DNA from: an uncultured Candidatus Saccharibacteria bacterium
GTDB lineage: Bacteria > Patescibacteriota > Minisyncoccia > UBA9983
Length of the DNA stretch: 64,000 bases
Reading direction: 5' to 3'
Assembly (NCBI GenBank): GCA_964372755.1
Contig: CAYJQX010000001.1
Coordinates: forward strand, 107,382 to 171,381
Shown piece by piece: positions 6,089 through 64,000 of the stretch (position 1 is the first letter of the stretch; each line of letters opens with the position of its first letter). The position numbers and the translations under genes are program-made. Under the pieces are notes generated by a model that was not told the origin of the DNA, did not search any database, and saw only the letters and a program-made list of their open reading frames with translations.

Positions 6089-6115
6089 AAACAGAAAGCT
6101 GTCCAGATATAACTG

Positions 6116-6155
6116 ACTGGGAGTTCGTGAAAGCGACTCCCAGTATTTTTTTTTG
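6116..6155 (+). terminator. rho-independent terminator
   Basis: ACTGGGAGT...ACTCCCAGT stem followed by T9. Confidence 0.7.
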
Positions 6156-6476
6156 GTAAAAAAATACTGGGAGATTCCTGTCTAATCAGAAAATACTTTA
6201 TTATTTTGTAAGAATCCCATAATCAAACAAAAATCTCTCATAGGGGGATTTTTAGCTGGTTTGTATACAAGATTTGACAAAAAAGATGGTCTGGTATATA
6301 ATAAGAGGGTACTTTGAATCTCAGCTAAGGTTTTTATTTCGAGGGTTTAACCCCTCTTTGGTGTTTGCAAACTTCTAGAGCCTCTCTAGGCTCGCATAAA
6401 AACCTCAAGTATAAGGCTCTTCTTAATTATAAAAAAGACATCAAGGGCTTGGAGAAAGAAAGGTTTTTAATAAAAT

Positions 6477-7715
6477 ATGTATACGAAAAAAGTAGAGAGT
6501 CGCGGTTTTGGCAAGCCATATAGAAAGCTGGCAGGAAGCCAGCCTTCTAGTTTTAGAAGAAGAGGATTAGGTAATTATAGACGCCAGCCAATAAAAAGAA
6601 CGCGAGGCGCGCAGTATATTGATCCGTCTAAATTTATAAACAAGGCGGTGATTACCGAAAGCGTGGAGCATTTTATTCCTGAACACCAATTTCAGGATTT
6701 TCGCATTGTTGAAAATTTAAAGAAAAAAATTGCTTCCAAGGGTTATATAACACCGACACCGATTCAAGACAGGGCTATCCCTCATATCTTGAAAGGGGCA
6801 GATTTGGTGGGTATTGCCAATACCGGTACAGGTAAAACAGGCGCTTTCCTTGTACCGCTTATAAATGCAGTTGTTTTGGACTCCAAGAAGCAAGTTCTTA
6901 TCATGGCTCCAACCAGAGAGCTGGCTATCCAGATTCAAGACGAGTTAAAAAGTTTTACCACGGGAATGAAGATTTTTTCGGTTTGTTGCGTCGGTGGAGC
7001 AAGTATCGGCAAACAAATTTCCGAATTGAGATACTTCAATAACTTTATTATCGGCACCCCGGGACGCCTAAAAGACTTGATAGAAAAAGGAAAAATAAAC
7101 CTTTCCCGATTCGGAATTTTGGTTTTGGATGAAGCTGACAGGATGCTGGATATGGGTTTTTTGCCTGATATGAGGCAAATTATTGCTTTGATGCCAAAAG
7201 AAAGACAGACACTATTTTTCTCGGCCACTATTTCTTTCGAAGTGGAAAAATTAATCAAAGATTTTCTTCGGGAACCTGTAAGGATTTCCGTTAAGACGGG
7301 AGATACTTCTAAAAATGTCCACCAGGATGTTGTGAGAATTCAAAAAGGAAAAGACAAGATCGATGTCTTGCACGAGCTTTTAAACCAAAAAGAGTTCAGC
7401 AAAGTATTGGTTTTTGGGCGGACTAAGCACGGAGTGGAAAAACTATCCGATATCCTTGTCAGAAGAGGCTTTAAGGCAGAGTCTATTCACGGCAACAAAA
7501 ATCAATACAAACGGCAAAAAGCTCTGGGACTTTTTAAAGACAACAGGGTGCAAGTATTGGTCGCAACTGACGTGGCAGCAAGGGGATTGGACATCAATGA
7601 CGTGAGCCATGTCATCAATTATGATTTACCGGCTACTTATGACGATTATGTGCATCGCATTGGGCGCACAGGCAGAGGCTCAAAATACGGCAAGGCGCTG
7701 ACTTTTATTGAATAA
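6477..7715 (+). CDS. DEAD-box ATP-dependent RNA helicase
   Basis: GTGKTGAF (motif I), DEAD, SAT, HRIGRTGR motifs; basic N-terminal extension. Confidence 0.9.
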   Translation: MYTKKVESRGFGKPYRKLAGSQPSSFRRRGLGNYRRQPIKRTRGAQYIDPSKFINKAVITESVEHFIPEHQFQDFRIVENLKKKIASKGYITPTPIQDRAIPHILKGADLVGIANTGTGKTGAFLVPLINAVVLDSKKQVLIMAPTRELAIQIQDELKSFTTGMKIFSVCCVGGASIGKQISELRYFNNFIIGTPGRLKDLIEKGKINLSRFGILVLDEADRMLDMGFLPDMRQIIALMPKERQTLFFSATISFEVEKLIKDFLREPVRISVKTGDTSKNVHQDVVRIQKGKDKIDVLHELLNQKEFSKVLVFGRTKHGVEKLSDILVRRGFKAESIHGNKNQYKRQKALGLFKDNRVQVLVATDVAARGLDINDVSHVINYDLPATYDDYVHRIGRTGRGSKYGKALTFIE

Positions 7716-23315: not shown

Positions 23316-24002
23316 ATGTATGTCATGGTCGATGTTGGGGGTTTAAGATACCCAAAAAAGAGTCATCGAAAACAAGTAATCTTGCCTAAATTTTCAGTAC
23401 GACTGTCAGAGTTTTTTGGAATTATGATGGGTGATGGTGGTATAAATAATCTTTGGCAAGCAAATATCACACTGAATTCAATCAAAGACGCTGAATATTC
23501 CAAGCATGTTTCTGTTTTATGTAAGAAACTTTTCGGTATTACGCCGGCCATACGGAAAAGAAAGACAAGTAACACGTTGGTAGTATCAATTACTAGTACG
23601 TCTGTAGTAGATTTTTTGGTTAATAATGGTCTTGTTCGAGGCAATAAACTCAAGGCTGGGTTGAGGATTCCAAAATGGATTTTGAAAAAACCATCATACA
23701 AAAAAGCATGCGTTCGCGGACTTGTAGATACTGACGGATGTATTTTTGTTCATTCTCATAGAGTAGACGGTAAGGCTTACAGAAATGTCGGCCTTTGTTT
23801 TACAAGTTACTCACCGGAGTTAATTATGGAAGTGGCGGATATTCTTGCTGAGTTTGGAATCACAGCACATATTAATAAGCGGAGGCGAAATATTTACTTG
23901 TATCAAGAAAGAATCGTGAGGGAGTATTTAAAGATATTCGGTACTTCAAATAACCGTATAGGGTCTGTGTATAGTAATTGGAGAGATGCGAGAGCGGTTT
24001 AA
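23316..24002 (+). CDS. LAGLIDADG homing endonuclease (double-motif), free-standing
   Basis: two LAGLIDADG-like motifs: FFGIMMGDGGIN and RGLVDTDGCIF; last 7 codons overlap tRNA-Ser. Confidence 0.75.
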   Translation: MYVMVDVGGLRYPKKSHRKQVILPKFSVRLSEFFGIMMGDGGINNLWQANITLNSIKDAEYSKHVSVLCKKLFGITPAIRKRKTSNTLVVSITSTSVVDFLVNNGLVRGNKLKAGLRIPKWILKKPSYKKACVRGLVDTDGCIFVHSHRVDGKAYRNVGLCFTSYSPELIMEVADILAEFGITAHINKRRRNIYLYQERIVREYLKIFGTSNNRIGSVYSNWRDARAV

Positions 24003-24069
24003 TCGGCAGACCTGGAAAGTCTGTGTGCTAGAAATGGCACCGAGGGTTCGAATCCCTCTCTCTCCGCCA
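23980..24069 (+). tRNA. tRNA-Ser (anticodon GGA), type II with long variable arm, CCA encoded
   Basis: manual fold: acceptor GGAGAGA/TCTCTCC, 3-bp D-stem, anticodon arm CAGAC-CTGGAAA-GTCTG, variable arm GTGC...GCAC, T-arm GAGGG-TTCGAAT-CCCTC. Confidence 0.85.
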
Positions 24070-41640: not shown

Positions 41641-44367
41641 TTGAATAATTCAATATCAAAGATTGACAAAGTTTTTTGGTACAGGGAAACAATCCCAAGA
41701 GTTTTAGAAATTCTTAATTCATACGAAAAAGGTTTATCTAATGAAGAAGCGCAAAGACGCCTCCGGATTTATGGACAAAACAAACTTCCAGAAGTAAAAA
41801 CCGATAGTTACTTTTTGATTTTTTTGAGGCAATTCCAAAATCCCCTCATTTATATCCTCTTTTTTGCTGCCGGTATAATTTTTGCAATCGGAGAGATCAC
41901 TGACGGCTTCATTATTTTCACGGTGCTTATTTTTAATGCGATTGTAGGTAGTATTCAGGAAGGAAAAGCTCAAAATACTTTGCTGGCCTTGAAGAAATTT
42001 ACGGAAACTTCAGCGACTGTTTTAAGGGAAGGAAAAGAAATTATAATTTCTGATACAGAAATTGTGCCCGGGGACATTATTCTTCTCCAAGAAGGAGAAA
42101 AGATTCCATCTGACGCCAGAATTATTTTTACAAACACCTTGAAAATTGACGAAGCCAGTTTGACCGGCGAATCTGGACCGGTTTCTAAGACAGAAACAAT
42201 TTTATCGTCAATAAACTCCTCATCTAAAGAGTCTATTATTCCAGTTTCTGATCAAAGAAATATGGTTTTTAAAGGAACTAACGTGTTGAGTGGCCATGGC
42301 ACTGCTTTGGTTGTGGCCACAGGCGTTAATACTGAAATTGGTAAAATAGCCAAAAAAATAAGCAAAATCGACACGGAAATACCGCTTAAAACAAATATCC
42401 GTTATCTCTCACGCATTATTATCATTACGGTGGTTGTAATTAGTCTGATATTGATTGGCTTAGGACTTTCCTCTGGTGAAAGCATAAAGGAAATGTTTAA
42501 AACAGTAGTTGCTTTGTCCGTTTCTATAATTCCCGAAGGTTTACCGATTGTGATGACATTGGTTTTGGCAACAGGCGTAAGAAGAATGTCCAAGAGAAAT
42601 GTTTTAGTGAAAAGATTACAGGCAGTAGAGGCGCTGGGGCAGACTAAGATCATTGCTGTCGATAAAACAGGCACTTTAACCAAAAATGAAATGGTTATAC
42701 AGCGTGTTTTTGTTGATGGTAAAAATTATGAAATTGGCGGAAGTGGTTATGAACCAAAGGGGGATGTTTTTTTGAATGGCGAGATAATTGACCCATTGAG
42801 CCATAATGGTTTGGTTTTAAGCGCAAAAGTGGCCGGATTTTTTACAGGAGCCAAACTTTCCTTTCTGGAATCAGAAGGAATTTGGAAGATTGCTGGTGAT
42901 CCCACGGAAGCGGCTCTTCAAGTTTTTTCCGAGAAAGTGGGATTTCAGAGAGATTTGCTGGAAAAAGAATTGCCAAAAGTTTTTGAAATCCCTTTTGACT
43001 ATAAGAAAAAATTCCATTCGGTGATTCGGCAAATGAAAGGAGAAAATTTTTTGGCTGTTACAGGCGCGCCTGAAAAAGTTTTAGATCTTTGTAAAAATAT
43101 TTGGCATGAAAAAGGGCAGGAACTATTGAATGAGGAAAAAAGAAAGGAATTAGAAATATTTTTTGATGAAATGGCCGGAAAAGGTTTTCGTCTTGTAGCT
43201 TGCGCTATAAATTCTCAAATGAAGGAAAACATAGACCTTGAAGACATTCCACCCCTTAGTTTTCTGGGACTCTTTGGGATGAAAGACGCAGTTCGTTCGG
43301 AGGTAAAAGAAGCCATACAAAAAGTACGAGAAGCAGGTATGCGTCTTGTAATGATCACGGGAGATCATCGTCTTACCGCTTATGCTGTCGCCAGAGAAGC
43401 CGGTCTTTGGCGAGAAGGAGAAAATATTTTAACTGGCGAAGAAATAGACACGATGACTGGTGAGGAACTGAAAGAAAAAATTGCTAAAACAACAGTGTTT
43501 GCCAGAGTTACCCCTGATCATAAATTAAAAATTATTCAAGCTTATCGTAATAGAGGCGAGATAGTGGCAATGACAGGGGACGGGGTAAATGATGCTCCGT
43601 CTCTTGTTGCGGCTGATCTTGGCGTGGCAATGGGTAAGATTGGCACCGAAGTAACAAAAGAGGCTTCTGATATTGTGCTTTTGGATGATAATTTTGCCAG
43701 TATTATTTCCGCGGCGGAAGAGGGGAGGGGTATATACAAAACAATAAAAAAAGTGATGCTCTATCTTTTTTCTACGAGTATGGGCGAAGTTCTTGTGATT
43801 GCCGGCTCTATTCTCTTGGATTTTCCACTCCCGCTTATTGCGGCACAGATCATATGGCTTAATTTTGTAACGGATGGCTTTCTTGATGTTGCTCTAGCGA
43901 TGGAACCAAAAGAAGAAGGATTGATGAGAGGAAAATTTGAAAAACCAAAAAAATGGATAATAGACAACTTAATGGTCAAAAGAATGTTCTTGATGTCTTT
44001 ACCGATGGCTATAGGCACTCTTTTTCTTTTTTCGAAATATTTTGAGAGCGACCTCACGAAGGCTTGGACAATTTCGCTTACAACCTTGGCTGTTTTTCAA
44101 TGGTTCAATGCTTGGAATTGTCGATCGGAGAGGGAGTCTATTTTCAGGATGAATCCCTTTTCTAATAAGTTTCTTTTAGGAGCGACATTTGTGGTAATAT
44201 CTTTGCAGATAATGGCTTTGCACCTTCCCTTTTTGCAAAGAATTTTGCATACTAAGCCACTCCTGTTGTCTGAATGGGTCGCCATTGCTTTAATAGCCAC
44301 ATCAGTTATTCTAATAGAAGAGATAAGAAAAATTTTCTCAAGAAGGAATGTCTTCAAAACTTTTTAA
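41641..44367 (+). CDS. P-type ATPase, P2-type cation (Ca2+/Mg2+-like) transporter
   Basis: DKTGTLT phosphorylation motif, TGDGVNDAPSL, 10-TM architecture, PEGLP. Confidence 0.85.
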   Translation: MNNSISKIDKVFWYRETIPRVLEILNSYEKGLSNEEAQRRLRIYGQNKLPEVKTDSYFLIFLRQFQNPLIYILFFAAGIIFAIGEITDGFIIFTVLIFNAIVGSIQEGKAQNTLLALKKFTETSATVLREGKEIIISDTEIVPGDIILLQEGEKIPSDARIIFTNTLKIDEASLTGESGPVSKTETILSSINSSSKESIIPVSDQRNMVFKGTNVLSGHGTALVVATGVNTEIGKIAKKISKIDTEIPLKTNIRYLSRIIIITVVVISLILIGLGLSSGESIKEMFKTVVALSVSIIPEGLPIVMTLVLATGVRRMSKRNVLVKRLQAVEALGQTKIIAVDKTGTLTKNEMVIQRVFVDGKNYEIGGSGYEPKGDVFLNGEIIDPLSHNGLVLSAKVAGFFTGAKLSFLESEGIWKIAGDPTEAALQVFSEKVGFQRDLLEKELPKVFEIPFDYKKKFHSVIRQMKGENFLAVTGAPEKVLDLCKNIWHEKGQELLNEEKRKELEIFFDEMAGKGFRLVACAINSQMKENIDLEDIPPLSFLGLFGMKDAVRSEVKEAIQKVREAGMRLVMITGDHRLTAYAVAREAGLWREGENILTGEEIDTMTGEELKEKIAKTTVFARVTPDHKLKIIQAYRNRGEIVAMTGDGVNDAPSLVAADLGVAMGKIGTEVTKEASDIVLLDDNFASIISAAEEGRGIYKTIKKVMLYLFSTSMGEVLVIAGSILLDFPLPLIAAQIIWLNFVTDGFLDVALAMEPKEEGLMRGKFEKPKKWIIDNLMVKRMFLMSLPMAIGTLFLFSKYFESDLTKAWTISLTTLAVFQWFNAWNCRSERESIFRMNPFSNKFLLGATFVVISLQIMALHLPFLQRILHTKPLLLSEWVAIALIATSVILIEEIRKIFSRRNVFKTF

Positions 44368-53067: not shown

Positions 53068-53781
53068 ATGGAAGAAAAAAATAAATCATTGGCAGTGCCT
53101 ATAGCCATTATTGTAGCGGGGCTTTTGATAGCAGGAACAATTCTTTATACAAATATTAAGTCGGACAAAAAAGGGGTTGAGGTAGGTGATCAGGGAAAAT
53201 TTGCTCCCGTTGATATTAAAATTCGTCCCGTGGATGAAACGGATCATCTAATAGGCGATCCGAACGCTCTAGTCAAAGTGATTGAGTATTCGGATTTTGA
53301 ATGTCCTTTTTGCAAAGTTTTCCATGGCACTATGCAAGCTATCATGCAGAGCGAACTTGGACGAAGCGGGAAAGTGGCTTGGGTTTTTAGAAATTTCCCC
53401 ATTGTTCGCCTTCATTCCAAAGCGATGGAAGAGGCGGAAGCGGCGGAGTGCGCGGGGAAAATTGGAGGCAATCTTAAATTTTGGGAGTATGCCAATAAGA
53501 TTTTTGAGATAACTCCGTCAAATAATCAACTGGACTTGGCTGAACTGCCAAAGATCGCCGAACAAATAGGGTTGGACAAGACGCAATTTCAAGCCTGTAT
53601 GAATTCCGATGAGACATTGGAGAGAATTAAGAAAGATTTGGCGGATGCGGTGGAAGGAGGGGGCGCGGGCACTCCTTGGACGGTGGTTACCACGCAAAAC
53701 GGCAAAACTTATGTCATAAACGGAGCCGAACCATATCAAACCTCTTTAAAAATTATCCAGACGGCGGTAGATTCCCAATAG
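53068..53781 (+). CDS. DsbA-family thiol:disulfide oxidoreductase, membrane-anchored
   Basis: N-terminal TM; CPFC active site in a thioredoxin fold. Confidence 0.8.
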   Translation: MEEKNKSLAVPIAIIVAGLLIAGTILYTNIKSDKKGVEVGDQGKFAPVDIKIRPVDETDHLIGDPNALVKVIEYSDFECPFCKVFHGTMQAIMQSELGRSGKVAWVFRNFPIVRLHSKAMEEAEAAECAGKIGGNLKFWEYANKIFEITPSNNQLDLAELPKIAEQIGLDKTQFQACMNSDETLERIKKDLADAVEGGGAGTPWTVVTTQNGKTYVINGAEPYQTSLKIIQTAVDSQ

Positions 53782-53808
53782 TTATTATTTAATCTAAAAA
53801 ACAAAAAC

Positions 53809-54042
53809 ATGAAAAACGTAAAAATTTACTCGACTCCAACTTGTACTTTTTGCAGGGCGGCCAAAGATTTTTTTAAAGCTAATAATGTTGAGTATACAGA
53901 AATAGACGTAGCTCAAGATGAAGAGGCGAGAAAAAATATGTTTGAAATCTCGAAGCAAATGGGGGTGCCGGTGATAGACATCGAGGGGGAAATTATTGTG
54001 GGTTTTAACAAGCCGAAACTTGTTCAAATTCTAGGCCTTTAA
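53809..54042 (+). CDS. glutaredoxin-like protein (NrdH/Grx family)
   Basis: KIYSTPTCTFC CxxC, 77 aa. Confidence 0.8.
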   Translation: MKNVKIYSTPTCTFCRAAKDFFKANNVEYTEIDVAQDEEARKNMFEISKQMGVPVIDIEGEIIVGFNKPKLVQILGL

Positions 54043-54060
54043 TTTTTTTATTTTAATTCA

Positions 54061-55041
54061 ATGTACGATTTTATCATCATCGGCGGAGGACCAGCTGGTG
54101 CTGGCGCGGCCGTTTATGCGGCTAGGAAAAAACTGAAAACTTTGCTAATTACCGAGAGTTTCGGTGGCCAATCTATAGTTTCTGACAATATAGAAAACTG
54201 GATAGGCACGGTAAAAATCTCCGGATATGATTTGGCGCAAGCCTTTGAAAACCACGTGAGGGCTTATCCTCATGACGTGGAAATAAAAATGCCTGAAAAA
54301 GCAGTAGGCATAAAAGAGGCAGAGGGAGGTTTTGAGGTGGAAACAGAAACAGGGGGAAAATACATCGGCAAAATGCTAATGATTGCTTCCGGCGGAAGAA
54401 GACGCAGGCTCGGTGTTCCTGGAGAGGATAAATATGATGGCAAAGGTGTCGCATTTTGCGCCACTTGCGACGCGCCGCTTTTTAAGGGCAAAGAAGTCAT
54501 TGTGGTGGGTTCTGGAAATTCCGCCTTGGAATCGGTAGTCGATCTTTTTCCTTATGCCTCAAAAATCACTCTTCTTATGAGAGGAGAAGAAATGAAAGGA
54601 GATCCGGCTACTCAAGAACACATTACTGAACGAGGAGATATGGTGACAATTTTGAAAAACACGGAAGTGACAGAAGTTTTCGGAGAAGATTTTGTGACCG
54701 GAGTCAAAATTAAAAATAACAAGACGGGAGAAACTGGAGAGATAAAAGCAGGGGGTCTTTTTGTAGAAATCGGTTCTGTGCCGAATTCAGAAATTGTAAA
54801 AGATCTAGTGGAATTAAATAATTTCGGTGAAATCGTCATTGACCACAAGCTTGGCACAACGTCTAAGTCTGGTATTTTTGCCGCCGGAGATGTGACAGAT
54901 GAAGTTTATAAACAAAATAATATCTCAGTAGGAAACGCGGTGATAGCGACGCTCTCAGCATACAATTATTTCTTGAAGACAAGAAAACTCGACCCTAATA
55001 CACGAATTAACTCGAATGATACTAATAGTGTTAAGTCCTAA
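54061..55041 (+). CDS. trxB: thioredoxin-disulfide reductase
   Basis: FAD GGGPAG, redox CATCD, NADPH GSGNSA motifs. Confidence 0.9.
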   Translation: MYDFIIIGGGPAGAGAAVYAARKKLKTLLITESFGGQSIVSDNIENWIGTVKISGYDLAQAFENHVRAYPHDVEIKMPEKAVGIKEAEGGFEVETETGGKYIGKMLMIASGGRRRRLGVPGEDKYDGKGVAFCATCDAPLFKGKEVIVVGSGNSALESVVDLFPYASKITLLMRGEEMKGDPATQEHITERGDMVTILKNTEVTEVFGEDFVTGVKIKNNKTGETGEIKAGGLFVEIGSVPNSEIVKDLVELNNFGEIVIDHKLGTTSKSGIFAAGDVTDEVYKQNNISVGNAVIATLSAYNYFLKTRKLDPNTRINSNDTNSVKS

Positions 55042-55129
55042 CTTCTTTTATTAGCGACATTCGCGCGTATTATTTGCGTATTGGCGTCGGGTAAAAATCA
55101 CCAAATTAATAATTAATAAAATTTTTGTT

Positions 55130-55801
55130 ATGAAATACACCCTTCCAAGTTTGCCATACGCTTATAACGCCCTCGAGCCTTATATAGACGAGGCGACGAT
55201 GACCATTCATCACACGAAGCATCACCAAGCTTATATTGATAAATTAAATGGCGCGCTCACGAAGCATCCCGAAATTGCCGAAACGCCGATTGAAGAATTA
55301 CTCAAAAATTTAGGCAGTGTGCCGGAGGATATTCGTGGGCAAATAAAAAATCATGGCGGGGGATATTTGAATCACTCGTTGTTTTGGGAAATCTTGGCGC
55401 CAGAGGGTGACGCGCAAAAAATGCCGAGTGGGGAATTGGCGGAAGCGATAAACAAATCTTTCGGCAGCTTTGACGCGTTTAAAGAGCAATTTACAAATGC
55501 TTCGTTAAATCATTTTGGCAGTGGCTGGGCATGGCTTGCCCTGAGCGAAGTCGATTTATCCCGAGCGGAGTCGAGGGGAGGGTTGAAAGTCTATAGTCTC
55601 CCTAACCAAGACAGTCCGTTGAGCCTCGCCCCGCGAAGCCTTGGCGAAGTGGGGAAAAATGACAGGCCTCTTATAGGCTTGGACGTTTGGGAGCACGCTT
55701 ATTATTTGAAATATCAAAACAAACGCGCCGATTACATCACGGCGTTTTGGAGTGTCTTGGATTGGAAGAAGGTAGGAGAACTGTATGCCGTTAATAAATG
55801 A
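55130..55801 (+). CDS. sodA: Fe/Mn superoxide dismutase with internal insertions
   Basis: HHTKHHQAY, DVWEHAYYLKYQN; ~25 extra residues between WAWL and PLIGLDVWEH encoded by repeat-like DNA. Confidence 0.9.
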   Translation: MKYTLPSLPYAYNALEPYIDEATMTIHHTKHHQAYIDKLNGALTKHPEIAETPIEELLKNLGSVPEDIRGQIKNHGGGYLNHSLFWEILAPEGDAQKMPSGELAEAINKSFGSFDAFKEQFTNASLNHFGSGWAWLALSEVDLSRAESRGGLKVYSLPNQDSPLSLAPRSLGEVGKNDRPLIGLDVWEHAYYLKYQNKRADYITAFWSVLDWKKVGELYAVNK

Positions 55802-55952: not shown

Positions 55953-57590
55953 TTAGCGAAGGCTGGAAGCCTTGGCGAAGTGGGGAAAGGTGGCCGAGAG
56001 GTTGAAGGCGCGGCTCTCGAAAAGCCGTATACCGGAAACGGTATCGAGGGTTCGAATCCCTCCCTTTCCGCCAGATTGGCAACTTTGAACCTTAGTCACG
56101 GCAAGGGTTTTTGAGCCCTTGCCACCGGCTTTTGGGGGTTCGAAATTGCTAGAGTTTAAGTCCATAAGAACATCAAAGACTGGCGTCCATATCGGCGTCA
56201 GTTTTTGATTTTGTACAGTAAAGCCTTCGAAGCATAGCTTCACCAATGTACGCTTTTGATTCATACCACTGGTCTGGAATACCTTATCTGCGTGATCCGT
56301 GAAGTCGAGTATCTCATTAAACTTTTGCACGAATTTGTCAGACTTACCCTCAAGGATCGATAGACGTTCCTGATACATCTCCTTCTCCTTTAAGAGCTCG
56401 TCCTGAATCTTTATAAACACATCTGCGTCTATGATGCGTTTTGAGCGATCCACGACAATATTGCGGATCTGTTGCTGGACTCTTACCAGCTCCTGCTTGA
56501 GAGTCTTTCGTTCCTTTTCCTCCTGATTTATTCGCTCTTTGGCGAAGTGCTGGAAATAAGCGTCCAAGACCTTCTTGAACCGATCCGGTAACTGCACCCT
56601 TGAGAGATGCATTGCGACCTGTTCCTCAACTGACTCCCAACGGATGTATTTGCGTTCGGTACACTTGCGATCGTTCCAATGGGTGCATGCGTAGTAGAGA
56701 TGACCTTTTTGCGTCTGTCCGCAGAGCGTAGAACCACAGACCGCACATCGCATGAATCCGGCCATTGGATACGAATGCTTGCGAGAACGATCGGCTGAGT
56801 GATTGTGTTGTTGGATGATTTCCTGAACGTCGTCAAAAAGCTTCTTGGTGATAAGTGTTGGAAAGCTTGCCTGACACGTTGCAGATCGAGTTTTGATGAG
56901 GCCGTAATAGATCGGATTCATCAGAATGTGCTCGATCGATGTTCGCTTCACCAAATTGCCGTATTTGCTCTTAAAGCCACGCTTAGCGAGTTCCTTTGCC
57001 AGCGAAAGATAGCTGTACTTACCGGTCGCATAGAGCTCAAAAGCCATTTTAACGAATGGTGCGCGCACGGGATCAACGATGAGAGACTTTGTCTTCTTAT
57101 CGTTTAAATAGCCGGTAGGTGCGTATCCGGGGAACCTGCCACGCTCTACGGCCTCTTTAAGACCCTTCCTGACCTCCCAGCTGATGTTCTGGGACGTCCA
57201 CTGGGCAATTGAGGACATAATGTTCTCGACAAGTTCTCCGGAGAAAGACTCGTCGAATTGCTCGACCACCGAGATCAACCGGACGTCGTGCTTTTTGAGC
57301 ATCATCTTTATTGCGGCGTAATCCGCAACGTTGCGACACATGCGGTCCAACTTGTGCATCAAAATGACATCAATCTTGCCGTCAGTTTTTGCCCGGTGAA
57401 GCATTTTCTGAAGCTGTGGACGTTCGACTGTTCGAGCCGATTCACCCTTTTCCTCGTAGACACCATCCGGTGCGAGAGTCCAGTTATGATCCATGCCGTA
57501 CTTTTGGCACGCTTTGACCTGCGCTGGGATACTCAGTTCTCGTTCGGCCTGACGAGAGGTAGAGACACGTCCGTAGATTAAATAATTCAT
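55953..57590 (-). CDS. large serine recombinase (resolvase N-domain + recombinase domain + zinc ribbon)
   Basis: YGRVSTSRQ catalytic Ser region, recombinase domain, CxxC...C...C zinc ribbon; the ORF has no stop until 55953, so the C-terminal ~40 codons are antisense to tRNA-Ser. Confidence 0.85.
   Translation of the reverse strand: MNYLIYGRVSTSRQAERELSIPAQVKACQKYGMDHNWTLAPDGVYEEKGESARTVERPQLQKMLHRAKTDGKIDVILMHKLDRMCRNVADYAAIKMMLKKHDVRLISVVEQFDESFSGELVENIMSSIAQWTSQNISWEVRKGLKEAVERGRFPGYAPTGYLNDKKTKSLIVDPVRAPFVKMAFELYATGKYSYLSLAKELAKRGFKSKYGNLVKRTSIEHILMNPIYYGLIKTRSATCQASFPTLITKKLFDDVQEIIQQHNHSADRSRKHSYPMAGFMRCAVCGSTLCGQTQKGHLYYACTHWNDRKCTERKYIRWESVEEQVAMHLSRVQLPDRFKKVLDAYFQHFAKERINQEEKERKTLKQELVRVQQQIRNIVVDRSKRIIDADVFIKIQDELLKEKEMYQERLSILEGKSDKFVQKFNEILDFTDHADKVFQTSGMNQKRTLVKLCFEGFTVQNQKLTPIWTPVFDVLMDLNSSNFEPPKAGGKGSKTLAVTKVQSCQSGGKGGIRTLDTVSGIRLFESRAFNLSATFPHFAKASSLR
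55984..56073 (+). tRNA. tRNA-Ser (anticodon CGA), type II, CCA encoded
   Basis: manual fold: GGAAAGG-TG-GCC-GAGAGGTTGAA-GGC-G-CGGCT-CTCGAAA-AGCCG-long arm-GAGGG-TTCGAAT-CCCTC-CCTTTCC-G-CCA. Confidence 0.85.
56100..56123. terminator. hairpin GGCAAGGG-TTTTTGAG-CCCTTGCC downstream of tRNA-Ser
   Basis: 8-bp GC-rich stem; weak T-run. Confidence 0.4.
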
Positions 57591-57641
57591 AAATTGTTTG
57601 TTAGATAGCTTGAGGGCTCTCCGTTTGGAGAGCCCTGGCGA

Positions 57642-58367
57642 TTAATATTTTTTTACGTGGTATACCAGCCGACCTATCATCTTGCTCTCCTTGAGAGGGT
57701 AGGTCTTTTTGAAGCCTTCTCTCTCTGGCCGGAGCTCGAGGTGATCACCTCGTTCGTGGTAATAACTCATCACCAGACCGTCCGGAGTCCTTATGATCGC
57801 TATGTCGCCGTTTTTTGGAGGAACGTCGGCATCGAGAATGATGAAGTCGTCGGTGACAATGCCGGCATCTGGAAGTGTGAGATCGGATACACGAAGTCCG
57901 AATACACGATGACCGGGTACAACATTATCCTTTGGAAGCAAAACAAAATCGCTCGTTCGGCTCAAATGCCCGTCGAGATCATCAATTGGGATCGCCACAA
58001 GCACCGGCAACTTGAAATGACCGCCGTCGGTCGAAAAACTCCTCTTCAGTTCTTCCAGCCCCTGCTCGAGCTTACTTGTGGCCTCCTGAACACGCTTCTC
58101 TCCGACCTCTTTAATATCAAATTTATAATTGCTGTCCTTGCTTACCTGATGAATCTTTCCCTCTGCCCAGTGCTTTCTGACTTCCTCCTCCTGAAGCTCA
58201 TATGCCTTAGCAAGGGTCGCCAGCTGTTTCTGGGAAGGGATGCGTGTGCCGTTTTCCAGCTGGCTGATATAGCTCGATGAAAAGCCAAGCCGTTCGGCAA
58301 GCTCTTTAATACTCCATTTTTTGAATTCTCTTTGCTGTCTTAGATATGAACCAAATGACATATTCAT
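57642..58367 (-). CDS. XRE-family HTH + S24 (LexA/cI-like) peptidase domain repressor
   Basis: N-terminal WSIKELAERLGFSSSYISQLENG HTH; C-terminal S24-like beta domain. Confidence 0.75.
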   Translation of the reverse strand: MNMSFGSYLRQQREFKKWSIKELAERLGFSSSYISQLENGTRIPSQKQLATLAKAYELQEEEVRKHWAEGKIHQVSKDSNYKFDIKEVGEKRVQEATSKLEQGLEELKRSFSTDGGHFKLPVLVAIPIDDLDGHLSRTSDFVLLPKDNVVPGHRVFGLRVSDLTLPDAGIVTDDFIILDADVPPKNGDIAIIRTPDGLVMSYYHERGDHLELRPEREGFKKTYPLKESKMIGRLVYHVKKY

Positions 58368-58517
58368 AGATTTTGCTTAATCGGTTAACTGCGACCTTGT
58401 TGCCTAAATGATAGCAAATTAGTAAAGATTAAGCAACTTTGCTTATCCACAAGCCAGAATATTGACCAGTTAAGCAATTTTGCTTAATATGACTATAGAG
58501 GTCTAAAAGTTAACGAT

Positions 58518-58724
58518 ATGAACAAATCACCAGTGAATATAAAACTCCGTGACCTTCGAATCAAGAAGGGGCTAACGCAATACCAGCTAGCCCGAATTCT
58601 TGGTTTTAAGCACAACACAGCGATCAGCCGGTACGAGACCGGCCGGAAGCGGCCGAATCTCGACACAGCCCAGCGGATCGCTTTGGCTCTCGGGGTCAGA
58701 GTAGAGGAAGTTTTCTTGCCTTAG
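58518..58724 (+). CDS. XRE-family HTH protein (Cro-like), divergent from the repressor
   Basis: LTQYQLARILGFKHNTAISRYETG HTH, 68 aa. Confidence 0.75.
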   Translation: MNKSPVNIKLRDLRIKKGLTQYQLARILGFKHNTAISRYETGRKRPNLDTAQRIALALGVRVEEVFLP

Positions 58725-58777
58725 GCAAGGTGGGGTCAATAAAAGTGTGAGGTCACTTCTATGAACCAAACCACCGC

Positions 58778-59056
58778 ATGTCCAAACCAGATAAAGATGA
58801 GGAAGCTCTTGTTGAGCTCACTCGCAACGCACTCGCCGACGTACTCGGACGAGAGCCGTCCCGACAAGAAGTTTGGAAAGTCCACGCTGGCTTTAAGCGT
58901 ATGGCGTTCATGCTTTTGGATCACATGAATCACATCAAAAAACATGAGAACGAAAATCCTGATCAAGAGACTTATCCGGAGGATATGGACACGGATGACT
59001 CGGAAGCCGCCGACAAGGAAGGAACTTCTTTGGAGACGGGAGAGCCTCTTACGTAA
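58778..59056 (+). CDS. hypothetical acidic protein
   Basis: 92-aa ORF in the island. Confidence 0.35.
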   Translation: MSKPDKDEEALVELTRNALADVLGREPSRQEVWKVHAGFKRMAFMLLDHMNHIKKHENENPDQETYPEDMDTDDSEAADKEGTSLETGEPLT

Positions 59057-59180
59057 CTTCAACATCCGGGAACTTGAAAATCCAATTACACGAAGAGATT
59101 TCTGCCGAGCGATGGATAACATCGATCGAGCTCTTCCCAAGGCCAGAGAGTGGTAAAGACCGAGCCTTACTCTCCCCTCA

Positions 59181-59786
59181 ATGACGCCAGACGTGATGGG
59201 AGGAATAAGGCCCGGTCTTGGTCGACTCCGCGCCTTAGTTTTTTCATGTATGCCGGATAAACAAATCGCAATCAGAGATCTTCGCAAAGGAGACTGGTAC
59301 TGGATCAGCAAAGTTCTCCTCGACGAGTACGGAAGCACGATCAAACCGATTGGCATCGCCGTTTATAACTGCCTGGCGGAGCATGCTAACCAGGAGGGTT
59401 TTTGCTTTCCTTCGCACAAACACATCGCCGACAAAATCGGCGCGAGTATTTCGAGTGTGCAAAGAGGCATACGGCAACTGATAAAGCTCGGCATCATCCG
59501 GAAAAGCCGGCGACGCTATCACAATGTGTACTACCTGTTGAAACTAGACCGGTCATACAGACCGAACTCAAACAAGACCGGTCAGTCAGACTTGCACATC
59601 GGTCAGAGAGACCGGTCAGATCAGTCAGTGGGAACTACTAACAAGAATAAAGAAAAAGAATTAATTAATAAGAATTCCGAACGTGATCAAAAAACTGGGG
59701 ATAACTTGCACGAATTGAAATCTGCGCTCGTTGAAAAGATGTCTATGAGTAGCTCAAAGAGGAGGACGGCGATGGATGACAGCTGA
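59181..59786 (+). CDS. HTH-domain protein, putative replication initiator / phage regulatory protein
   Basis: HIADKIGASISSVQRGIRQLIKLGII winged-helix-like; iteron-like repeats inside the 3' coding region. Confidence 0.45.
   Translation: MTPDVMGGIRPGLGRLRALVFSCMPDKQIAIRDLRKGDWYWISKVLLDEYGSTIKPIGIAVYNCLAEHANQEGFCFPSHKHIADKIGASISSVQRGIRQLIKLGIIRKSRRRYHNVYYLLKLDRSYRPNSNKTGQSDLHIGQRDRSDQSVGTTNKNKEKELINKNSERDQKTGDNLHELKSALVEKMSMSSSKRRTAMDDS
59546..59618. repeat. three direct copies of AGACCGGTCA (palindromic core GACCGGTC) at 59546, 59575 and 59609: iteron-like
   Basis: read directly; ~29-34 nt spacing. Confidence 0.45.
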
Positions 59787-59909
59787 TCATCGTTGGCCGT
59801 CCGGGAAATGGTCGAACCCCGGTCTGAAATATTATTAACTAATCCATGATCGAGGATTTCTGAAAGCCAATATCAGCAATACCAGCCCAAGAAACCTCCA
59901 ACGCTACCT

Positions 59910-60194
59910 ATGGATCAAGATCAATTAAATATAGGCAATTGCCCTCATTGCACTAAGATCATCTTCAAGAACGGAGCATTCAACTCGAACGCTTCGTTTA
60001 CGATGCGTTGCCCGAGCTGTCAGAAACTCCTTGAAATAGAGATAAGGACAAAGATTGAGATCATCATAAAACCAGCTGAAAGATATCTATCAGAGAAAAA
60101 ACCAAAGTTTGGGAAATTGCCTGTGCTATTTCTGATTCCCACACCTTCTTGCTCTTATGCAATTTGTATCTGTGTAATCAATTGTCTTTGCTGA
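59910..60194 (+). CDS. zinc-ribbon hypothetical protein
   Basis: CPHC...CPSC pairs. Confidence 0.35.
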   Translation: MDQDQLNIGNCPHCTKIIFKNGAFNSNASFTMRCPSCQKLLEIEIRTKIEIIIKPAERYLSEKKPKFGKLPVLFLIPTPSCSYAICICVINCLC

Positions 60195-60267
60195 AGTTCC
60201 ATACTCGTTATACAAAAAGGAGCTACATTAGCCCCTTTTTGCCCTTTGTTTGCCCCTGTGGCGAGCT

Positions 60268-61875
60268 TTATTCGACCTTGAAGCCAAACATCATGCTGGC
60301 CTCCAAATGCTCCGCAATGTGACAGTGTGCCATCCACTCGCCGGGATTGGTCATTTCGACGAGAATCTCAACATTGTCGCCATTTTGAATAAGCGTAGTA
60401 TCTTTCCAGACGAGGTTATCATTCGGTTTGCCATTCGTACTCAACACCAAGAATCGCTGACCGTGGAAGTGGATCGGGTGTTGCATTGGATGCATGGAAT
60501 TCGGGTCGTTGGTGATTTTGATTTTCACCTTGTCACCAACTTTAAATTTCCAGTCGATGTCCATATTTTTATTACCGGTGTCTTCGTCTTCTATAACCCA
60601 CTTCATCATCTCCGGATTGGACATTGCATTCATCATGGTATTACTGTCTTCCCACTCAATCGGATTGTCGCTTGCCATCATCGATCCATTCGACATGCTC
60701 TGGCCGTTGCCCATCATGTGCATGTTGTGACCGCCGGTCTCTTCCTGTTGCATCATGCCCTGCATATCCATACCCATATCAATGGACAACTTCAGACGCT
60801 TGTCTACCGGTTTATTGAACGACGACCTGAAGGCATCAATCTCAGATTGTATGTCTTTGTTTGAGCGCAATACTGCAAACTCTTTCTCAAAAGAAATGGC
60901 GATTTTTTCACTCGCAATGGTAATTGTTCCGAGCGTATAGGTACGTTCAGGAGTTTTGTGCTCAAGTTTATACGACCCAGCGTTAGCAAACAACACTTCA
61001 ACAATGACTCGTTCGGAGGGACTCAAGATAACGCCATCGCTCCATGTTTCGCGTTCGTATTTGCCGCCGTCAGCACCCACAAGCTTCATCTTTGCGCCAG
61101 GAATAGAGAGATTGAATGTTCTGGTATTGGCGGAGTTCGTGATATAGAAACGAATCACTTCTCCGGCATTTGCTTGAAGTGTGTAATCCGTCTCACCGTT
61201 TACGAGCATGGTATTACCAAACCTGCCCATGAGAGTATGGTCAGCAGATGCTTTGCTGAATACTGCGATCTTGCCATTTTCCATGAGGATATCGTCTACA
61301 AAGAGAGCGACTTCGCGGTTGACCGGAGACCAGTAGTTCGGATCATTGGGAACGACAAGGTAATTGCCGTAGAGACCAAGCTCCTGTGCATAGTCTTCTC
61401 GAATGTGTGGATGATACCAATACATGCCCTCGTCGGGGAACTTGACCTTGTAGGTGAAAGATTCGCCCGGCCTAACCTCCTTCTGTGTCACATCTGGTAC
61501 GCCATCGAATTTATTCTCCAGCCGTACACCGTGCGAGTGAATCGTGGTATCGACATCAGTGTTATTAGTGAAATTCAAAGTAACTTCTGCACCTTGCTCA
61601 ACCTTGATCATGGGTCCCGGTATCATGCCGTTATATGCGAGCATTTTAACCACGCTGTTACCGATCGTTTTCTTTACGATAGACGCCGTGAGGTTGTATG
61701 TATCACCGTTCTTAAGCTCGACTATCTCGCTCTGCTTGGCTTCCACAAGGCCGGTGATATCGGTAGAAAAACTACCAGCCAATACTGTATTACCTGTGTC
61801 TGTCTGTCGTAGTAAAGCGATTCCGCCGACCACGATCACGACTGCAATGATTCCAATGATTAGTTTATTTTTCAT
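60268..61875 (-). CDS. multicopper oxidase (CueO/CopA-type) with signal peptide and Met-rich insert
   Basis: HxH copper sites (WYHPH, HPIHFHG), HCHIAEHLEASMM type-1 Cu site, Met-rich MGMDMQGMMQQ...MHMMGNG segment. Confidence 0.85.
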   Translation of the reverse strand: MKNKLIIGIIAVVIVVGGIALLRQTDTGNTVLAGSFSTDITGLVEAKQSEIVELKNGDTYNLTASIVKKTIGNSVVKMLAYNGMIPGPMIKVEQGAEVTLNFTNNTDVDTTIHSHGVRLENKFDGVPDVTQKEVRPGESFTYKVKFPDEGMYWYHPHIREDYAQELGLYGNYLVVPNDPNYWSPVNREVALFVDDILMENGKIAVFSKASADHTLMGRFGNTMLVNGETDYTLQANAGEVIRFYITNSANTRTFNLSIPGAKMKLVGADGGKYERETWSDGVILSPSERVIVEVLFANAGSYKLEHKTPERTYTLGTITIASEKIAISFEKEFAVLRSNKDIQSEIDAFRSSFNKPVDKRLKLSIDMGMDMQGMMQQEETGGHNMHMMGNGQSMSNGSMMASDNPIEWEDSNTMMNAMSNPEMMKWVIEDEDTGNKNMDIDWKFKVGDKVKIKITNDPNSMHPMQHPIHFHGQRFLVLSTNGKPNDNLVWKDTTLIQNGDNVEILVEMTNPGEWMAHCHIAEHLEASMMFGFKVE

Positions 61876-61894
61876 ATATTTATTGGTCGGTTAA

Positions 61895-64000
61895 TTATAA
61901 TTCACGCCTTCGTAGAAGGACGGCGTTAATTGCAACAATAACCGTGCTTGCCGACATAAACACGGCGGCTACTGCCGGATCAAGAATGATTCCCTTGAAT
62001 GCAAGTGCGCCGGCCGCAAGAGGCAGTGCTACCACGTTATAGCCGGTTGCCCAAAACAGGTTCTGGATCATCTTTGTATAGGTCATCTGCGACAATCGCA
62101 CAATCTTCACGATATCCCGAGGATCGTTCCGAACAAGAATGATACCGGCCGATTCAATGGCGACATTTGTACCTGCACCTATTGCAATGCCGAGATCGGC
62201 CTGTGTCAGAGCCGGAGCATCATTGATACCATCGCCGACCATAGCAACTTTGAGACCTCGCTCTTGAAGCGCTTTTACCTTTTCTGATTTCTCCGACGGG
62301 AGTACCCTAGCGAAATACTCATCTATGCCAAGCTCGGAGGCAACCCACTTGGCAACATCTTCGGAGTCGCCGGTGATCATTGCTGTTTTCACACCCCTTT
62401 CTTTGAGCGACTTAATGGCTTCTCGTGACTCTTCGCGGATGATGTCGGCAAGAGCAATGGCACCGAGGAGCTTTTTATCCTTTACCGTAAAGACAACGGT
62501 CTGTCCTTTTTTTCCAGCATCCTGAACCTGATTGGAGATTTCATTGGGGACGGTAAGTCCAAGACCCTCAAGAAGTGCCGGTCCACCAACCATAATCTCC
62601 TGCTCGCCGATCATTGCTTTCACGCCTTTACCTTTGATCGCTTCAAATTTCTTAGGATCTTTGAGTGACAATTTTTGTTCTTTTGCTTTTGCGACAACAG
62701 CACGAGCGATCGGATGTTCCGACAGGGTATCAAGTGAAGCGGCTAATTCTACAACCTCGTCTTTAGTATGTCCGCTAGTGTTCCAAACTTCCACTACTCC
62801 GAATTCTCCCTTGGTTAGTGTTCCTGTTTTATCAAATAACACTGTGTCAATAGTTCGAGCGGCTTCAAGAGCAAGACGCTGTTTTACCAAAAAGCCGTTC
62901 TGTGCCGCTTTGGTTGTAGAGATTGATGCAACAAGCGGCACTGCCAGACCAAGTGCGTGCGGACAGGCAATGACAAGTACGGCTACAAGCCGAGCCACCG
63001 CAAAACCGACGTCAGCTCCGACCATAAGCCATGCAATGAGCGTAATTATGCCTCCACCGACTGCGACTATTGTGAGATAAAGGGCGGCTCGGTCGGAAAG
63101 AATCTGCAAACGCGACTTGGAAGCTTGAGCTTCGGCGACTAAACGCATAACACCAGCAAGAAAGGTTTTCTCGCCGATTTGTGCAACCTTAATTTTCAGT
63201 GCACCATCACCATTTATAGTGCCAGCGATAACTGCGTCACCCTGCTTCTTGGAAACTGGTTTCGACTCTCCAGTAACCATCGACTCGTTTACATCGGAAT
63301 CTCCGTCAATGATCGAGCCGTCTGCAGGAATCTTCGTTCCGGGTTTTACGAGCACAACATCGTTCTCTCGAAGCTCGGAAAGCGAAATAGTTGTTGTTAC
63401 ACTATTACGGATTACTTCTGCAGTATCAGGAAGGAGCTTTGAAAGCTCCTTAAGCGCACCTTGTGCTCCGGAAACTGCACGCATCTCGAGCCAGTGCCCA
63501 AGAAGCATAATGGTGATAAGCGTTGTAAGCTCCCAAAAAAGAGCTTCAGCACCTGCAAAAACCGCATACACACTCCAGAGGTAAGCGGCAGAAATAGCGA
63601 TAGCGATCAGGGTCATCATGCCCGGCAGTCGTCCTTTGATTTCACGCCATGCACCAGCAAGGAATACCCAGCCACCATAGAAAAAGACGATCGATCCTAA
63701 GATCAAAGGGAGATAGTCCGAACCGGGAAAAGTAGGCGGTGACCACTTGAAAATAGTCTCTACGACCTTAGCGTAGAGCACAACTGGAATAGTTAAAATG
63801 AGGCTTATCCAAAACTTTCTAAAAAACATCTTGGTCGAATGACCTGCGTGTTTATCATGATCCTCGTGTCCGACTGATCCCTTTTTCTTTGTAGGCACCA
63901 GCCGCATACCGCATTCAGGGCACATACCAGGATTGTCCTGCATCACCTCTGGATGCATAGGGCAGGTGTACAGATCTTTTGTGTGTTCGTGATGAGTCAT
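61895..64000 (-). CDS. copper-transporting P1B-type ATPase, CPH-motif (CopB/P1B-3-like); start coincides with the window edge
   Basis: TM6 CPH (ACPHALGLAVP), DKTGTLT, GDGINDAPAL, HP dipeptide; His-rich N-terminus with CPMHPE...CPECG metal-binding zinc ribbon. Confidence 0.85.
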   Translation of the reverse strand: MTHHEHTKDLYTCPMHPEVMQDNPGMCPECGMRLVPTKKKGSVGHEDHDKHAGHSTKMFFRKFWISLILTIPVVLYAKVVETIFKWSPPTFPGSDYLPLILGSIVFFYGGWVFLAGAWREIKGRLPGMMTLIAIAISAAYLWSVYAVFAGAEALFWELTTLITIMLLGHWLEMRAVSGAQGALKELSKLLPDTAEVIRNSVTTTISLSELRENDVVLVKPGTKIPADGSIIDGDSDVNESMVTGESKPVSKKQGDAVIAGTINGDGALKIKVAQIGEKTFLAGVMRLVAEAQASKSRLQILSDRAALYLTIVAVGGGIITLIAWLMVGADVGFAVARLVAVLVIACPHALGLAVPLVASISTTKAAQNGFLVKQRLALEAARTIDTVLFDKTGTLTKGEFGVVEVWNTSGHTKDEVVELAASLDTLSEHPIARAVVAKAKEQKLSLKDPKKFEAIKGKGVKAMIGEQEIMVGGPALLEGLGLTVPNEISNQVQDAGKKGQTVVFTVKDKKLLGAIALADIIREESREAIKSLKERGVKTAMITGDSEDVAKWVASELGIDEYFARVLPSEKSEKVKALQERGLKVAMVGDGINDAPALTQADLGIAIGAGTNVAIESAGIILVRNDPRDIVKIVRLSQMTYTKMIQNLFWATGYNVVALPLAAGALAFKGIILDPAVAAVFMSASTVIVAINAVLLRRREL

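Follow-up and report, generated by a model that had tools for sequence, protein, structure and literature searches.

Introduction

What has entered the chromosome at a serine tRNA gene near the right end of this stretch, how did it get there, and what are genes for copper handling doing in it? The stretch, a window of 64,000 nucleotides from contig CAYJQX010000001.1, encodes the host housekeeping proteins BipA, RNase J, GroEL, class II ribonucleotide reductase (RNR), LepA, MurJ and a class I aminoacyl-tRNA synthetase. Directly to the right of tRNA-Ser(CGA) (55984–56073, plus strand, ARAGORN) the gene content switches to a large serine recombinase (the integrase), a cI-like repressor, a Cro-like protein, a putative replication initiator, a multicopper oxidase and a P1B-type ATPase. 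The initial annotation had proposed a mobile element integrated at this tRNA gene. The proposal is supported here by a compositional break, by profile searches that recovered all of the domains it had named, and by the discovery of the same element in a different chromosomal context; the genes do not belong to a conserved neighborhood of the lineage, since their copies sit in differing contexts. Positions 56074–64000 probably represent the 7.9 kb at the integrase end of a temperate tailed phage that resides in the chromosome of a tiny groundwater member of the Paceibacterota, in the candidate phyla radiation (CPR), and the full prophage would be about 38–44 kb long.

Results

Host, composition and mobility of the element

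The G+C fraction was 0.401 for 1–55983 and 0.472 for 56074–64000, with the break at the end of the tRNA, so that the higher G+C suspected for the element relative to the housekeeping part was confirmed by calculation. The host is placed in the CPR by its GroEL, whose named relatives, at 68–78% identity, were from Paceibacterota, Patescibacteria or Parcubacteria (other relatives reached 84–89%), and the earlier description of the host as CPR-like is consistent with these matches.

The same oxidase was found to be encoded on an 83-kb Logan contig, SRR12901032_152 (locus L001; loci are cited by such numbers below). By BLAST, positions 56050–64000 of the window were 99.94% identical to L001, and four of the five mismatches fell within the first 24 bases, corresponding to the T-arm and acceptor strand of the tRNA. 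This clustering of the mismatches in the tRNA indicates that the shared DNA truly starts at TCCGCCA. The L001 copy adjoined tRNA-Ser(GGA) in a host with different flanking genes (HhH-GPD, FtsZ, FtsA and others) and a G+C of 0.551, and thioredoxin reductase, the only host protein that could be compared, was 37–43% identical between the two hosts. The L001-type junction was assembled independently in three samples. A third copy (L019), with a 99% identical integrase and a lysogeny module of 89.6% DNA identity, was located at tRNA-Ser(GCT) of a third host and carried different cargo. The presence of near-identical DNA in very divergent hosts means that the element was recently mobile, and that it has moved between hosts.

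The attachment site at the 3′ end of tRNA genes

One genome per species in GTDB was scanned, and 46 integrase loci were found, all of them in Patescibacteria-type metagenome-assembled genomes where the record title was informative. An antisense tRNA overlapped or abutted the 3′ end of the integrase gene in all 42 loci in which that end was present. These tRNAs comprised 12 Ser(CGA), 12 Ser(GCT), 8 Ser(GGA), 6 Ser(TGA) and 4 Asp(GTC), or 38 serine and 4 aspartate tRNAs, and the junction, at which ...YCCGCCA is followed directly by GATkkyCAAsTTwGAACC, was found in 45 of the 46 loci. Association with tRNA genes is a property of the whole integrase clade. Because the integrase open reading frames (ORFs) run into the antisense tRNA at every one of the 42 loci, the phage attachment site, attP, must overlap the 3′ end of the integrase gene. 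Several of the records (L022, L023, L025, L031, L033, L045, L047, L060 and others) were titled 'uncultured Gammaproteobacteria' or 'Candidatus Saccharibacteria' (third-party annotation, TPA); these titles are possibly placeholders or mislabels.

The common core, CCGCCAG (56068–56074), consists of the last two bases of the acceptor stem, the discriminator G, CCA and one extra base. It is the only sequence common to attL and attR of a related prophage from IMG/VR, whereas of the window copy only attL is visible, and the exact crossover dinucleotide would lie within the core. Just upstream of the core, the tRNAs of the window and L001 hosts differ at four positions. The 3′ part of the tRNA (T arm and acceptor strand) forms the B half-site of the bacterial attachment site, attB, and the tRNA remains intact after integration: the crossover falls in the last bases of the tRNA and the phage supplies identical ones, and thus the gene survives. 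The P′ arm, GATTGGCAACTTTGAACC (56074–56091), follows the core within the integrase coding sequence (codons ...VQSCQS) and had a single match in the window. The possibility that GATTGGCAACTTTGAACC is the native host sequence following tRNA-Ser was considered and rejected, as it was missing both at an unoccupied tRNA-Ser(GGA) of the window and in the reconstructed attB of the relative.

In the related prophage, the far junction was located about 37.8 kb from the tRNA and read GGTTCTAACTTCGGGACATCGCCA-CCGCCAG-GACAATTTC. The arm to the left of this far core is an inverted repeat of the arm following the tRNA, P (GGTTCTAACTTCGGGACATC) being inverted relative to P′ (GATGTCCAAGTTAGAACC). In the P arms examined, the distance from the start of a GGTTC motif to the core was 24 nt, against 19 nt in the tRNAs, which places the motif 5 bp further out in the P arm. 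An offset of 5 bp between attB and attP half-sites has been described for serine integrases, and in those enzymes the offset of the outer half-site is linked to binding by the zinc ribbon.

With a core of 7 nt, no long repeat of the tRNA 3′ end is expected at the far end of the element, only one of about 7 nt. A search of L001 for a 24-nt repeat of the tRNA 3′ end was negative, as would be expected in hindsight, and generic searches for inverted and direct repeats over L001 did not reveal the far end. Nor did a 23-mer spanning the junction (the core plus the first 16 nt of the window P′ arm) have an exact match in IMG/VR.

The unoccupied tRNA-Ser(GGA) lies at 23980–24069 of the window. It has the same 3′ end, ...CTCTCCGCCA, continues into AAATTGAGAG... 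without an insertion, and is apparently a vacant potential attB in the same genome. The GGA isoacceptor, empty here, is the one occupied in the L001 host. At two further integrase loci no tRNA was present. L068 (11380–11700) contained a P-arm-like sequence, CCCGCCAG and P′, and represents either an excised form or a junction within a tandem array; its P′ did not differ from that of L057, an element integrated at tRNA-Asp. L069 (3150–3396) had neither a tRNA nor a P arm, and its left flank was unrelated.

The integrase and its reading frame

The integrase ORF (55953–57590, minus strand, 545 amino acids [aa]) contained Resolvase (PF00239, 3.8e-30), Recombinase (PF07508, 5.8e-15) and Zn_ribbon_recom (PF13408, 5.2e-08) domains, and it ran antisense through the entire tRNA-Ser(CGA). 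The initial annotation of a large serine recombinase reading through the tRNA was thereby borne out by three Pfam domains and the ORF coordinates. In an alignment of 29 sequences, residues R8, S10 and Q14 of the motif YGRVSTSRQ were invariant, as were the zinc-ribbon cysteines C282, C285, C302 and C310. By its domain architecture the product is a large serine recombinase, predicted to recombine attP with attB.

Protein searches resolved a clade of 41 clusters with 67–99% identity, and the next relatives were at most 38% identical. The closest integrase of a GenBank phage was 28% identical, and the best NCBIfam matches, CcrB, XisF and CcrA, were all far under their cut-offs. Clade members were 492–569 aa long and diverged past a common ...SGG, which in the window protein ends at residue 508; the last 40 residues (506–545) are encoded by host DNA, read antisense to the tRNA. 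Nearly all of 33 full-length clade proteins continued as ...SGGxGxIRT..., the antisense translation of the tRNA T-arm, and in the 512/513-aa forms examined a TGA stop was created by the TTCAAATCC T-loop variant of the tRNA. The ORF always crosses the junction because the P′ arm lies in the reading frame, and the tail is thus dependent on the site.

This site-dependent tail is probably without function. A role for the tail swap as a regulatory device, resembling integration-dependent immunity, was considered and found to be unsupported: tails were not conserved among integrated copies, and those of two candidate un-integrated forms were unrelated sequences of 45 aa and 8 aa.

A related prophage with head and tail genes

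IMG/VR contig UViG_3300025154_002045 (55.9 kb) encoded an integrase 81% identical to that of the window, and this integrase likewise read into a tRNA-Ser(CGA). It was followed by a repressor, the 92-aa ORF, an HTH_36 gene, a cargo slot and a 929-aa PHP and AAA ATPase (TrlF family by NCBIfam), and then by methylases, RadC-like, Fic, zeta toxin, D12 methylase and ParB_N-like genes. Beyond these were found a large terminase (TerL), an SU10-like portal, a major capsid protein (SU10_MCP, PF17236, 2.4e-40), a beta-helix tail fiber, BppU_N and an SU10 adaptor (PF24175, 1e-12). The portal match (PF23899) was weak, at 6e-05 and 22 bits, under the 30-bit cut-off. The closest capsid of a GenBank phage was at most about 30% identical, and relatives of the terminase were abundant on Patescibacteria contigs of 37–40 kb.

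The copper-bearing element was followed for 18 kb. It matched the relative on both sides of the cargo slot at 78–88% DNA identity, and past the cargo it encoded a TrlF ATPase, RadC (82% aa identity), Fic (85%) and D12 methylase (97%), in the order in which these precede ParB and TerL in the relative. The relative is a phage, carrying terminase, portal, capsid and tail genes and both ends, and the element in the window is therefore read as the lysogeny end of a prophage, whose own structural genes and far end would follow on the same plan.

The prophage backbone (L004 563–4943, L010 2718–9819) is dense in genes of defense or addiction type: TrlF-like ATPase, Fic, RadC-like JAB, zeta toxin, and D12 and N6_N4 methylases. 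The 929-aa PHP and AAA ATPase passes the TrlF-family cut-off and is related to the anti-phage protein Ppl.

The lysogeny switch and the putative replication module

A protein with an XRE-type helix-turn-helix (HTH) and a Peptidase_S24 domain (57642–58367, minus strand) was encoded divergently from a 68-aa HTH_3 protein (58518–58724, plus strand; Pfam, 8.8e-17). Repeat searches of the control region between them (58366–58488) identified two 18-bp palindromes, TTAAGCAAnnTTGCTTAA (approximately 58429–58446 and 58470–58487), and a half-site at 58370–58383. This operator-like repeat was also present in L001, and the Cro-like gene was kept in L018, L019, L068 and L069. The layout, domains and operators agree with the lysogeny switch envisaged in the initial annotation, a cI-like XRE/S24 repressor opposed to Cro, with the exception that the S24-like domain is without its catalytic Ser/Lys pair. 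In HMMER alignments of the repressor C-terminal domain with LexA structures, Ser119 of LexA was replaced by T, A or Q and Lys156 by S, T, A or N across six family members; the affected region of the repressor spans residues 155–205 or thereabouts. Cleavage of the repressor by itself in the LexA style, stimulated by RecA, is not supported by these alignments, and the domain probably serves dimerization.

Downstream of the Cro-like gene, a conserved 92-aa ORF (58778–59056, plus strand) without a Pfam match had a counterpart of the same size and position in L001, L002, L018, L019 and L069 (87 aa in L068), and it could be an excision or early gene. It is followed by an HTH_36/DnaD_N-like protein (59181–59786, plus strand), a putative replication initiator. 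Three exact copies of AGACCGGTCA were present within its gene at 59546, 59575 and 59609, with no further exact copy in the 64 kb, and the Rep-like HTH protein with three iteron-like repeats that had been anticipated is thus recovered. The palindromic core of the repeats, GACCGGTC (59546–59618), is found at the corresponding position of the HTH_36 gene in many relatives and marks a putative origin inside the initiator gene. A 94-aa ORF with two CxxC pairs (59910–60194, plus strand) appeared in the ORF list, and it is within this ORF, at about 60120, that the BLAST matches of the backbone to its relatives end.

Copper genes in a variable cargo slot

The oxidase gene (60268–61875, minus strand) encodes domains PF07732, PF00394 and PF07731, the motifs HSH (113), HPH (155), HPIHFH (466) and HCH (517), an N-terminal membrane anchor and a Met-rich insert, with 16 Met in 77 residues. 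On the strength of these domains and four copper motifs, the Met-rich multicopper oxidase of the initial annotation stands; by sequence the protein is a three-domain multicopper oxidase and is not assigned as CueO.

The adjacent ATPase gene (61895–64000, minus strand) scored 587.6 bits with TIGR01511 (cut-off 397). Its product has a His-rich N-terminus with an HMBD at 11–36, a TGE motif, and CPH (346), DKTGT (390), GDGIND (589), GYNVVALP (653) and MSASTVIVAIN (682). The start giving 701 aa leaves the HMBD whole. The GYNx4P and MSxSTx5N signatures define P1B-3 (CopB-type) ATPases in the Arguello classification, and by these signatures the protein is of the P1B-3 type. The CPH motif and CopB-type assignment made earlier are thereby retained; the 'Cu2+' attached to that subgroup is a matter of historical classification and is not shown here. 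An exact look-up of the 701-aa ATPase, the 545-aa integrase and the superoxide dismutase (SOD) encoded near the tRNA returned no record, while the 676-aa form of the ATPase, the oxidase and the repressor were matched.

The cluster extends past the window, and the genes upstream of the ATPase were read in L004. The cargo is a co-directional 9.2-kb cluster between the TrlF ATPase gene and the HTH_36 gene, and it comprises a DsbA-like gene, four ORFs without a family match (144, 180, 192 and 176 aa, the 144-aa ORF being listed ahead of the DsbA-like gene), a DUF7282-cupredoxin gene, a CsoR-family gene (Trns_repr_metal), a YHS gene, two small ORFs, the ATPase and the oxidase. A 58-nt stretch at the integrase-side edge of the slot (60213–60269) was 91% identical to L009 7179–7235, although the cargo there differs. 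In L009, the IMG/VR phage, the slot (4711–6979) holds a PD-(D/E)XK nuclease and a tyrosine recombinase (Phage_integrase, 6e-22); in L018 it holds a histidine kinase, an ABC transporter and PAP2 proteins; and in L019 (1203–7326) a 402-aa DsbA-like protein, SurA_N, a 640-aa P-type ATPase, PAP2 and an M23 peptidase. The slot is variable, with four gene sets at one position in four elements, and the contents of L019 suggest that it repeatedly recruits genes of the envelope or of ion homeostasis. The tyrosine recombinase in the IMG/VR prophage is a second, unrelated recombinase inside a serine-integrase phage. The oxidase gene also adjoins the lysogeny module of a Parcubacteria genome in GTDB (L024); with this and the exchangeable slot, the copper module behaves as a phage 'moron'.

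A 908-aa type II P-type cation ATPase of the host (41641–44367; Cation_ATPase_N/C) is unrelated to the phage-borne copper pump. Just upstream of the tRNA, at 53068–55801, lies a redox-stress cluster of the host (DsbA-like, glutaredoxin-like, thioredoxin reductase and Fe/Mn SOD) in which G+C climbs to 0.46 over the last kb; it is placed outside the element because identity with L001 begins only at the tRNA end.

Recombinase-less units at the same attachment sites

The 23-mer described above was used as a query against JGI metagenome contigs and gave at least 120 exact matches. A complete tRNA preceded 54 of 84 junctions (51 Ser, 3 Asp), and only 9 of 80 loci (L070–L149) had an integrase-like gene. 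At the other loci the P′ arm ran on as ...GAACC-NAAG-NAAAATAAGG and was followed by ordinary genes that mostly point the same way as the tRNA: the first ORF did so at 56 of 62 junctions, and the tRNA strand encoded 91% of ORF residues. Closed units of 0.7–5.4 kb, in which tRNA, core and P′ are followed by genes, a P arm, the core and then either a next P′ or other DNA, were present in eight loci (examples are L120 650–2729, in reverse, L080 6737–10187, L137 1699–8325 and L095 138–2446). The contents of closed units were guaA, type II or type III restriction-modification systems, AAA ATPases, and a peptidase with a phosphatase. The guaA unit occurred in eight loci, with guaA 84–86% identical and unrelated left neighbors.

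From their arrangement, these units look like recombinase-less cassettes on phage att sites, similar to SCC (staphylococcal cassette chromosome) elements or integron cassettes. In a rival reading they are repeat elements that serve as extra attachment sites; some 17 loci in which the flank extended for 3 kb or more showed no closing site. That the phage integrase moves such units, which stand head to tail at tRNA-Ser 3′ ends in many Patescibacteria, in trans is a tentative proposal, and less likely than not.

Discussion

The findings are best explained by a temperate tailed phage that integrates at the 3′ end of tRNA-Ser, but several observations weigh against this reading. The window ends in the cargo and further sequence extends the element to about 18 kb, so that the far end and structural genes would lie beyond. 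The oxidase had no copy in IMG/VR, and no excised form (P arm, core, P′ and integrase) with the window P′ type was found among the 80 metagenome loci. No recombination directionality factor was identified, and with a repressor that is without the S24 catalytic pair, induction would have to go by another route. The lineage of the second host (L001) is hinted at by a sole clue, one flank gene 63% identical to a Yonathbacteria gene. As for the cargo, the best NCBIfam matches of the oxidase, CueO (167 bits, cut-off 525) and CopA (137 bits, cut-off 479), are both below threshold, the transported metal is unreadable from sequence, and the copper specificity of the genes is a prediction.

The first of these points would fit a defective or cryptic prophage, a remnant that kept the lysogeny module and cargo, lost its morphogenesis genes and makes no particles: structural genes were not observed for the copper-bearing copy (18 kb read, oxidase absent from IMG/VR), and the failure to find an excised form with the window P′ arm among the metagenome loci points the same way. 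However, 99.94% identity over 7.9 kb in two very divergent hosts implies very recent horizontal movement, all of the ORFs are intact, and synteny with the complete relative holds up to the methylase preceding ParB and TerL. A remnant is accordingly regarded as improbable. Less probable still is an integrative element that is not a virus (an integrated plasmid, for instance, or an integrative mobilizable element) and that has only its integration, immunity and replication module in common with phages. Integration modules do swap between element types, and the 18 kb hold plasmid-like functions (HTH_36 with iterons, Fic and RadC, joined in the relative by ParB_N-like and zeta toxin genes), but no relaxase or conjugation gene was seen in the visible 18 kb, the relative, whose backbone is the same to either side of the slot, has a full head and tail module within an att-bounded 37.8 kb, and relatives of its TerL occur on many 37–40 kb Patescibacteria contigs. 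It is hardly credible that the region belongs to the regular chromosome of the lineage, or that it arose in assembly through the joining of two organisms at a conserved tRNA: metagenome contigs can be chimeric at repeats, but host and element overlap at the join by only about 7 nt, far under assembler k-mer sizes, the join lies exactly at the position used in 45 other loci and coincides with the G+C break, and the element is found elsewhere in other chromosomal contexts.

The prophage reading leads to the following model. The large serine recombinase would join phage attP with attB, the left half of attB being the T-arm and acceptor end of tRNA-Ser. Crossover would take place inside CCGCCAG at the extreme 3′ end of the tRNA, where identical phage bases would keep the tRNA intact. 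With attP overlapping the last integrase codons, the ORF would run on across the junction and gain a site-dependent tail of some 10–60 residues. Lysogeny would be maintained by the cI-like repressor on its palindromic operators, opposing the Cro-like gene, and replication would begin at the GACCGGTC iterons within the HTH_36 initiator gene, as in lambda O. Rising Cu(I) would cause CsoR to free the operon; the ATPase would then export copper from the cytoplasm and the oxidase would turn Cu(I) into less toxic Cu(II) outside, so that the lysogen may gain copper tolerance.

In its Resolvase, Recombinase and zinc-ribbon domains and in having the integrase beside attP, the element resembles the serine-integrase phages phiC31, Bxb1, A118, TP901-1 and SPbeta (SprA). 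It also shares with them a short core (7 nt, within the 5–8 bp typical of Int-S systems; PMC8092301), arms of imperfect dyad symmetry and a P motif 5 bp further out. The known phages of this kind, in contrast, insert in protein-coding genes or repeats, usually disrupting them (PMC8092301, PMC10083194), and all of the Int-S phages of Mycobacterium abscessus insert within ORFs, with cores of 5–8 bp (PMC8092301), whereas the target of this clade is the 3′ end of tRNA-Ser or tRNA-Asp, the gene is left intact and attP overlaps the stop region of the integrase. The nearest precedent is provided by the Ralstonia filamentous phages phiRSM1 and phiRSM3 (PMC3816273), in which ORF14 is a small serine recombinase and the core, TGGCGGAGAGGGT, consists of the last 13 nt of tRNA-Ser(UCG), in reverse orientation. 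These phages thus use the very part of that tRNA species that is used here, but their enzyme is of resolvase/invertase size without Recombinase or zinc-ribbon domains, their core measures 13 nt, and they are inoviruses with a proteobacterial host.

Staphylococcal SCC elements, moved by CcrAB or CcrC at the 3′ end of rlmH, are likewise inserted at a 3′ end without inactivation and carry resistance cargo, and the best NCBIfam matches of the integrase are Ccr proteins; the metagenome loci may add a further likeness in their recombinase-less units with the same att sites and tandem stacks. SCC elements are not phages, however, their target is protein-coding, and the similarity is at family level only. 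Systems with attP inside a gene, namely the mycobacteriophages with integration-dependent immunity (PMC8092301) and SSV1-type elements, also alter the C-terminus of a protein on integration, but their recombinase is a tyrosine integrase and the alteration has a function, namely the removal of a degradation tag or the splitting of the gene. The relative has a capsid, an adaptor and, more weakly, a portal like those of SU10-like podoviruses, but it is temperate, has a CPR host and has a capsid at most 30% identical to that of any GenBank phage. The lambda cI/Cro switch has the same divergent repressor and Cro with repeated operators, unlike this one with a self-cleaving S24 domain. The copper genes recall systems of a CopB-type ATPase, a CueO/CopA-type oxidase and CsoR, in the CPH, GYNx4P, MSxST, DKTGT and GDGIND motifs and His-rich N-terminus of the pump and in the four copper motifs and Met-rich insert of the oxidase; here, unlike in those systems, they are phage cargo in the CPR, and the oxidase has a membrane anchor, no recognizable Tat signal and scores under the equivalog cut-offs.

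The recombinase family and the idea of integration into tRNA genes are already known. Islander (PMC4383910) states tRNA genes to be known targets of tyrosine integrases only; TIGER (PMC7192596) located 14 of 297 serine-integrase elements at t(m)RNA genes, called them previously unreported and in need of experimental proof; and the largest catalogue of large serine recombinases (PMC10083194) leaves tRNA unmentioned. The first two of these are in line with the remark in the initial annotation that it is unusual for a serine recombinase to be associated with a tRNA. What appear to be new are clade-invariant tRNA targeting by a large serine integrase, the attP-in-gene layout, the CPR host and the copper cargo, a combination undescribed in the literature searched. 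Viruses of nitrifiers have been reported to encode multicopper oxidases (PMC11849493), and no report of a whole copper-export module in a Patescibacteria phage was found in the literature.

Use of tRNA genes without exception across the clade in dozens of genomes, at sites that are now defined, makes the claim directly testable with a 60-bp attP and a 50-bp attB. Since serine integrases work without host factors and nearly all of these bacteria have the target, the enzyme is a candidate tool for the insertion of DNA into CPR bacteria, which lack genetic systems. If the phage integrase does move the recombinase-less units in trans, CPR bacteria would have a tRNA-anchored cassette system based on a serine recombinase, analogous to integrons or SCC arrays, with phages as its engine. 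As phage cargo, a module for copper export and oxidation would offer minimal-genome bacteria a route to metal tolerance. Finally, a near-identical phage in hosts that are 15 G+C points apart, with thioredoxin reductases about 40% identical, speaks for gene flow between deep lineages of the CPR, a subject on which little is known.

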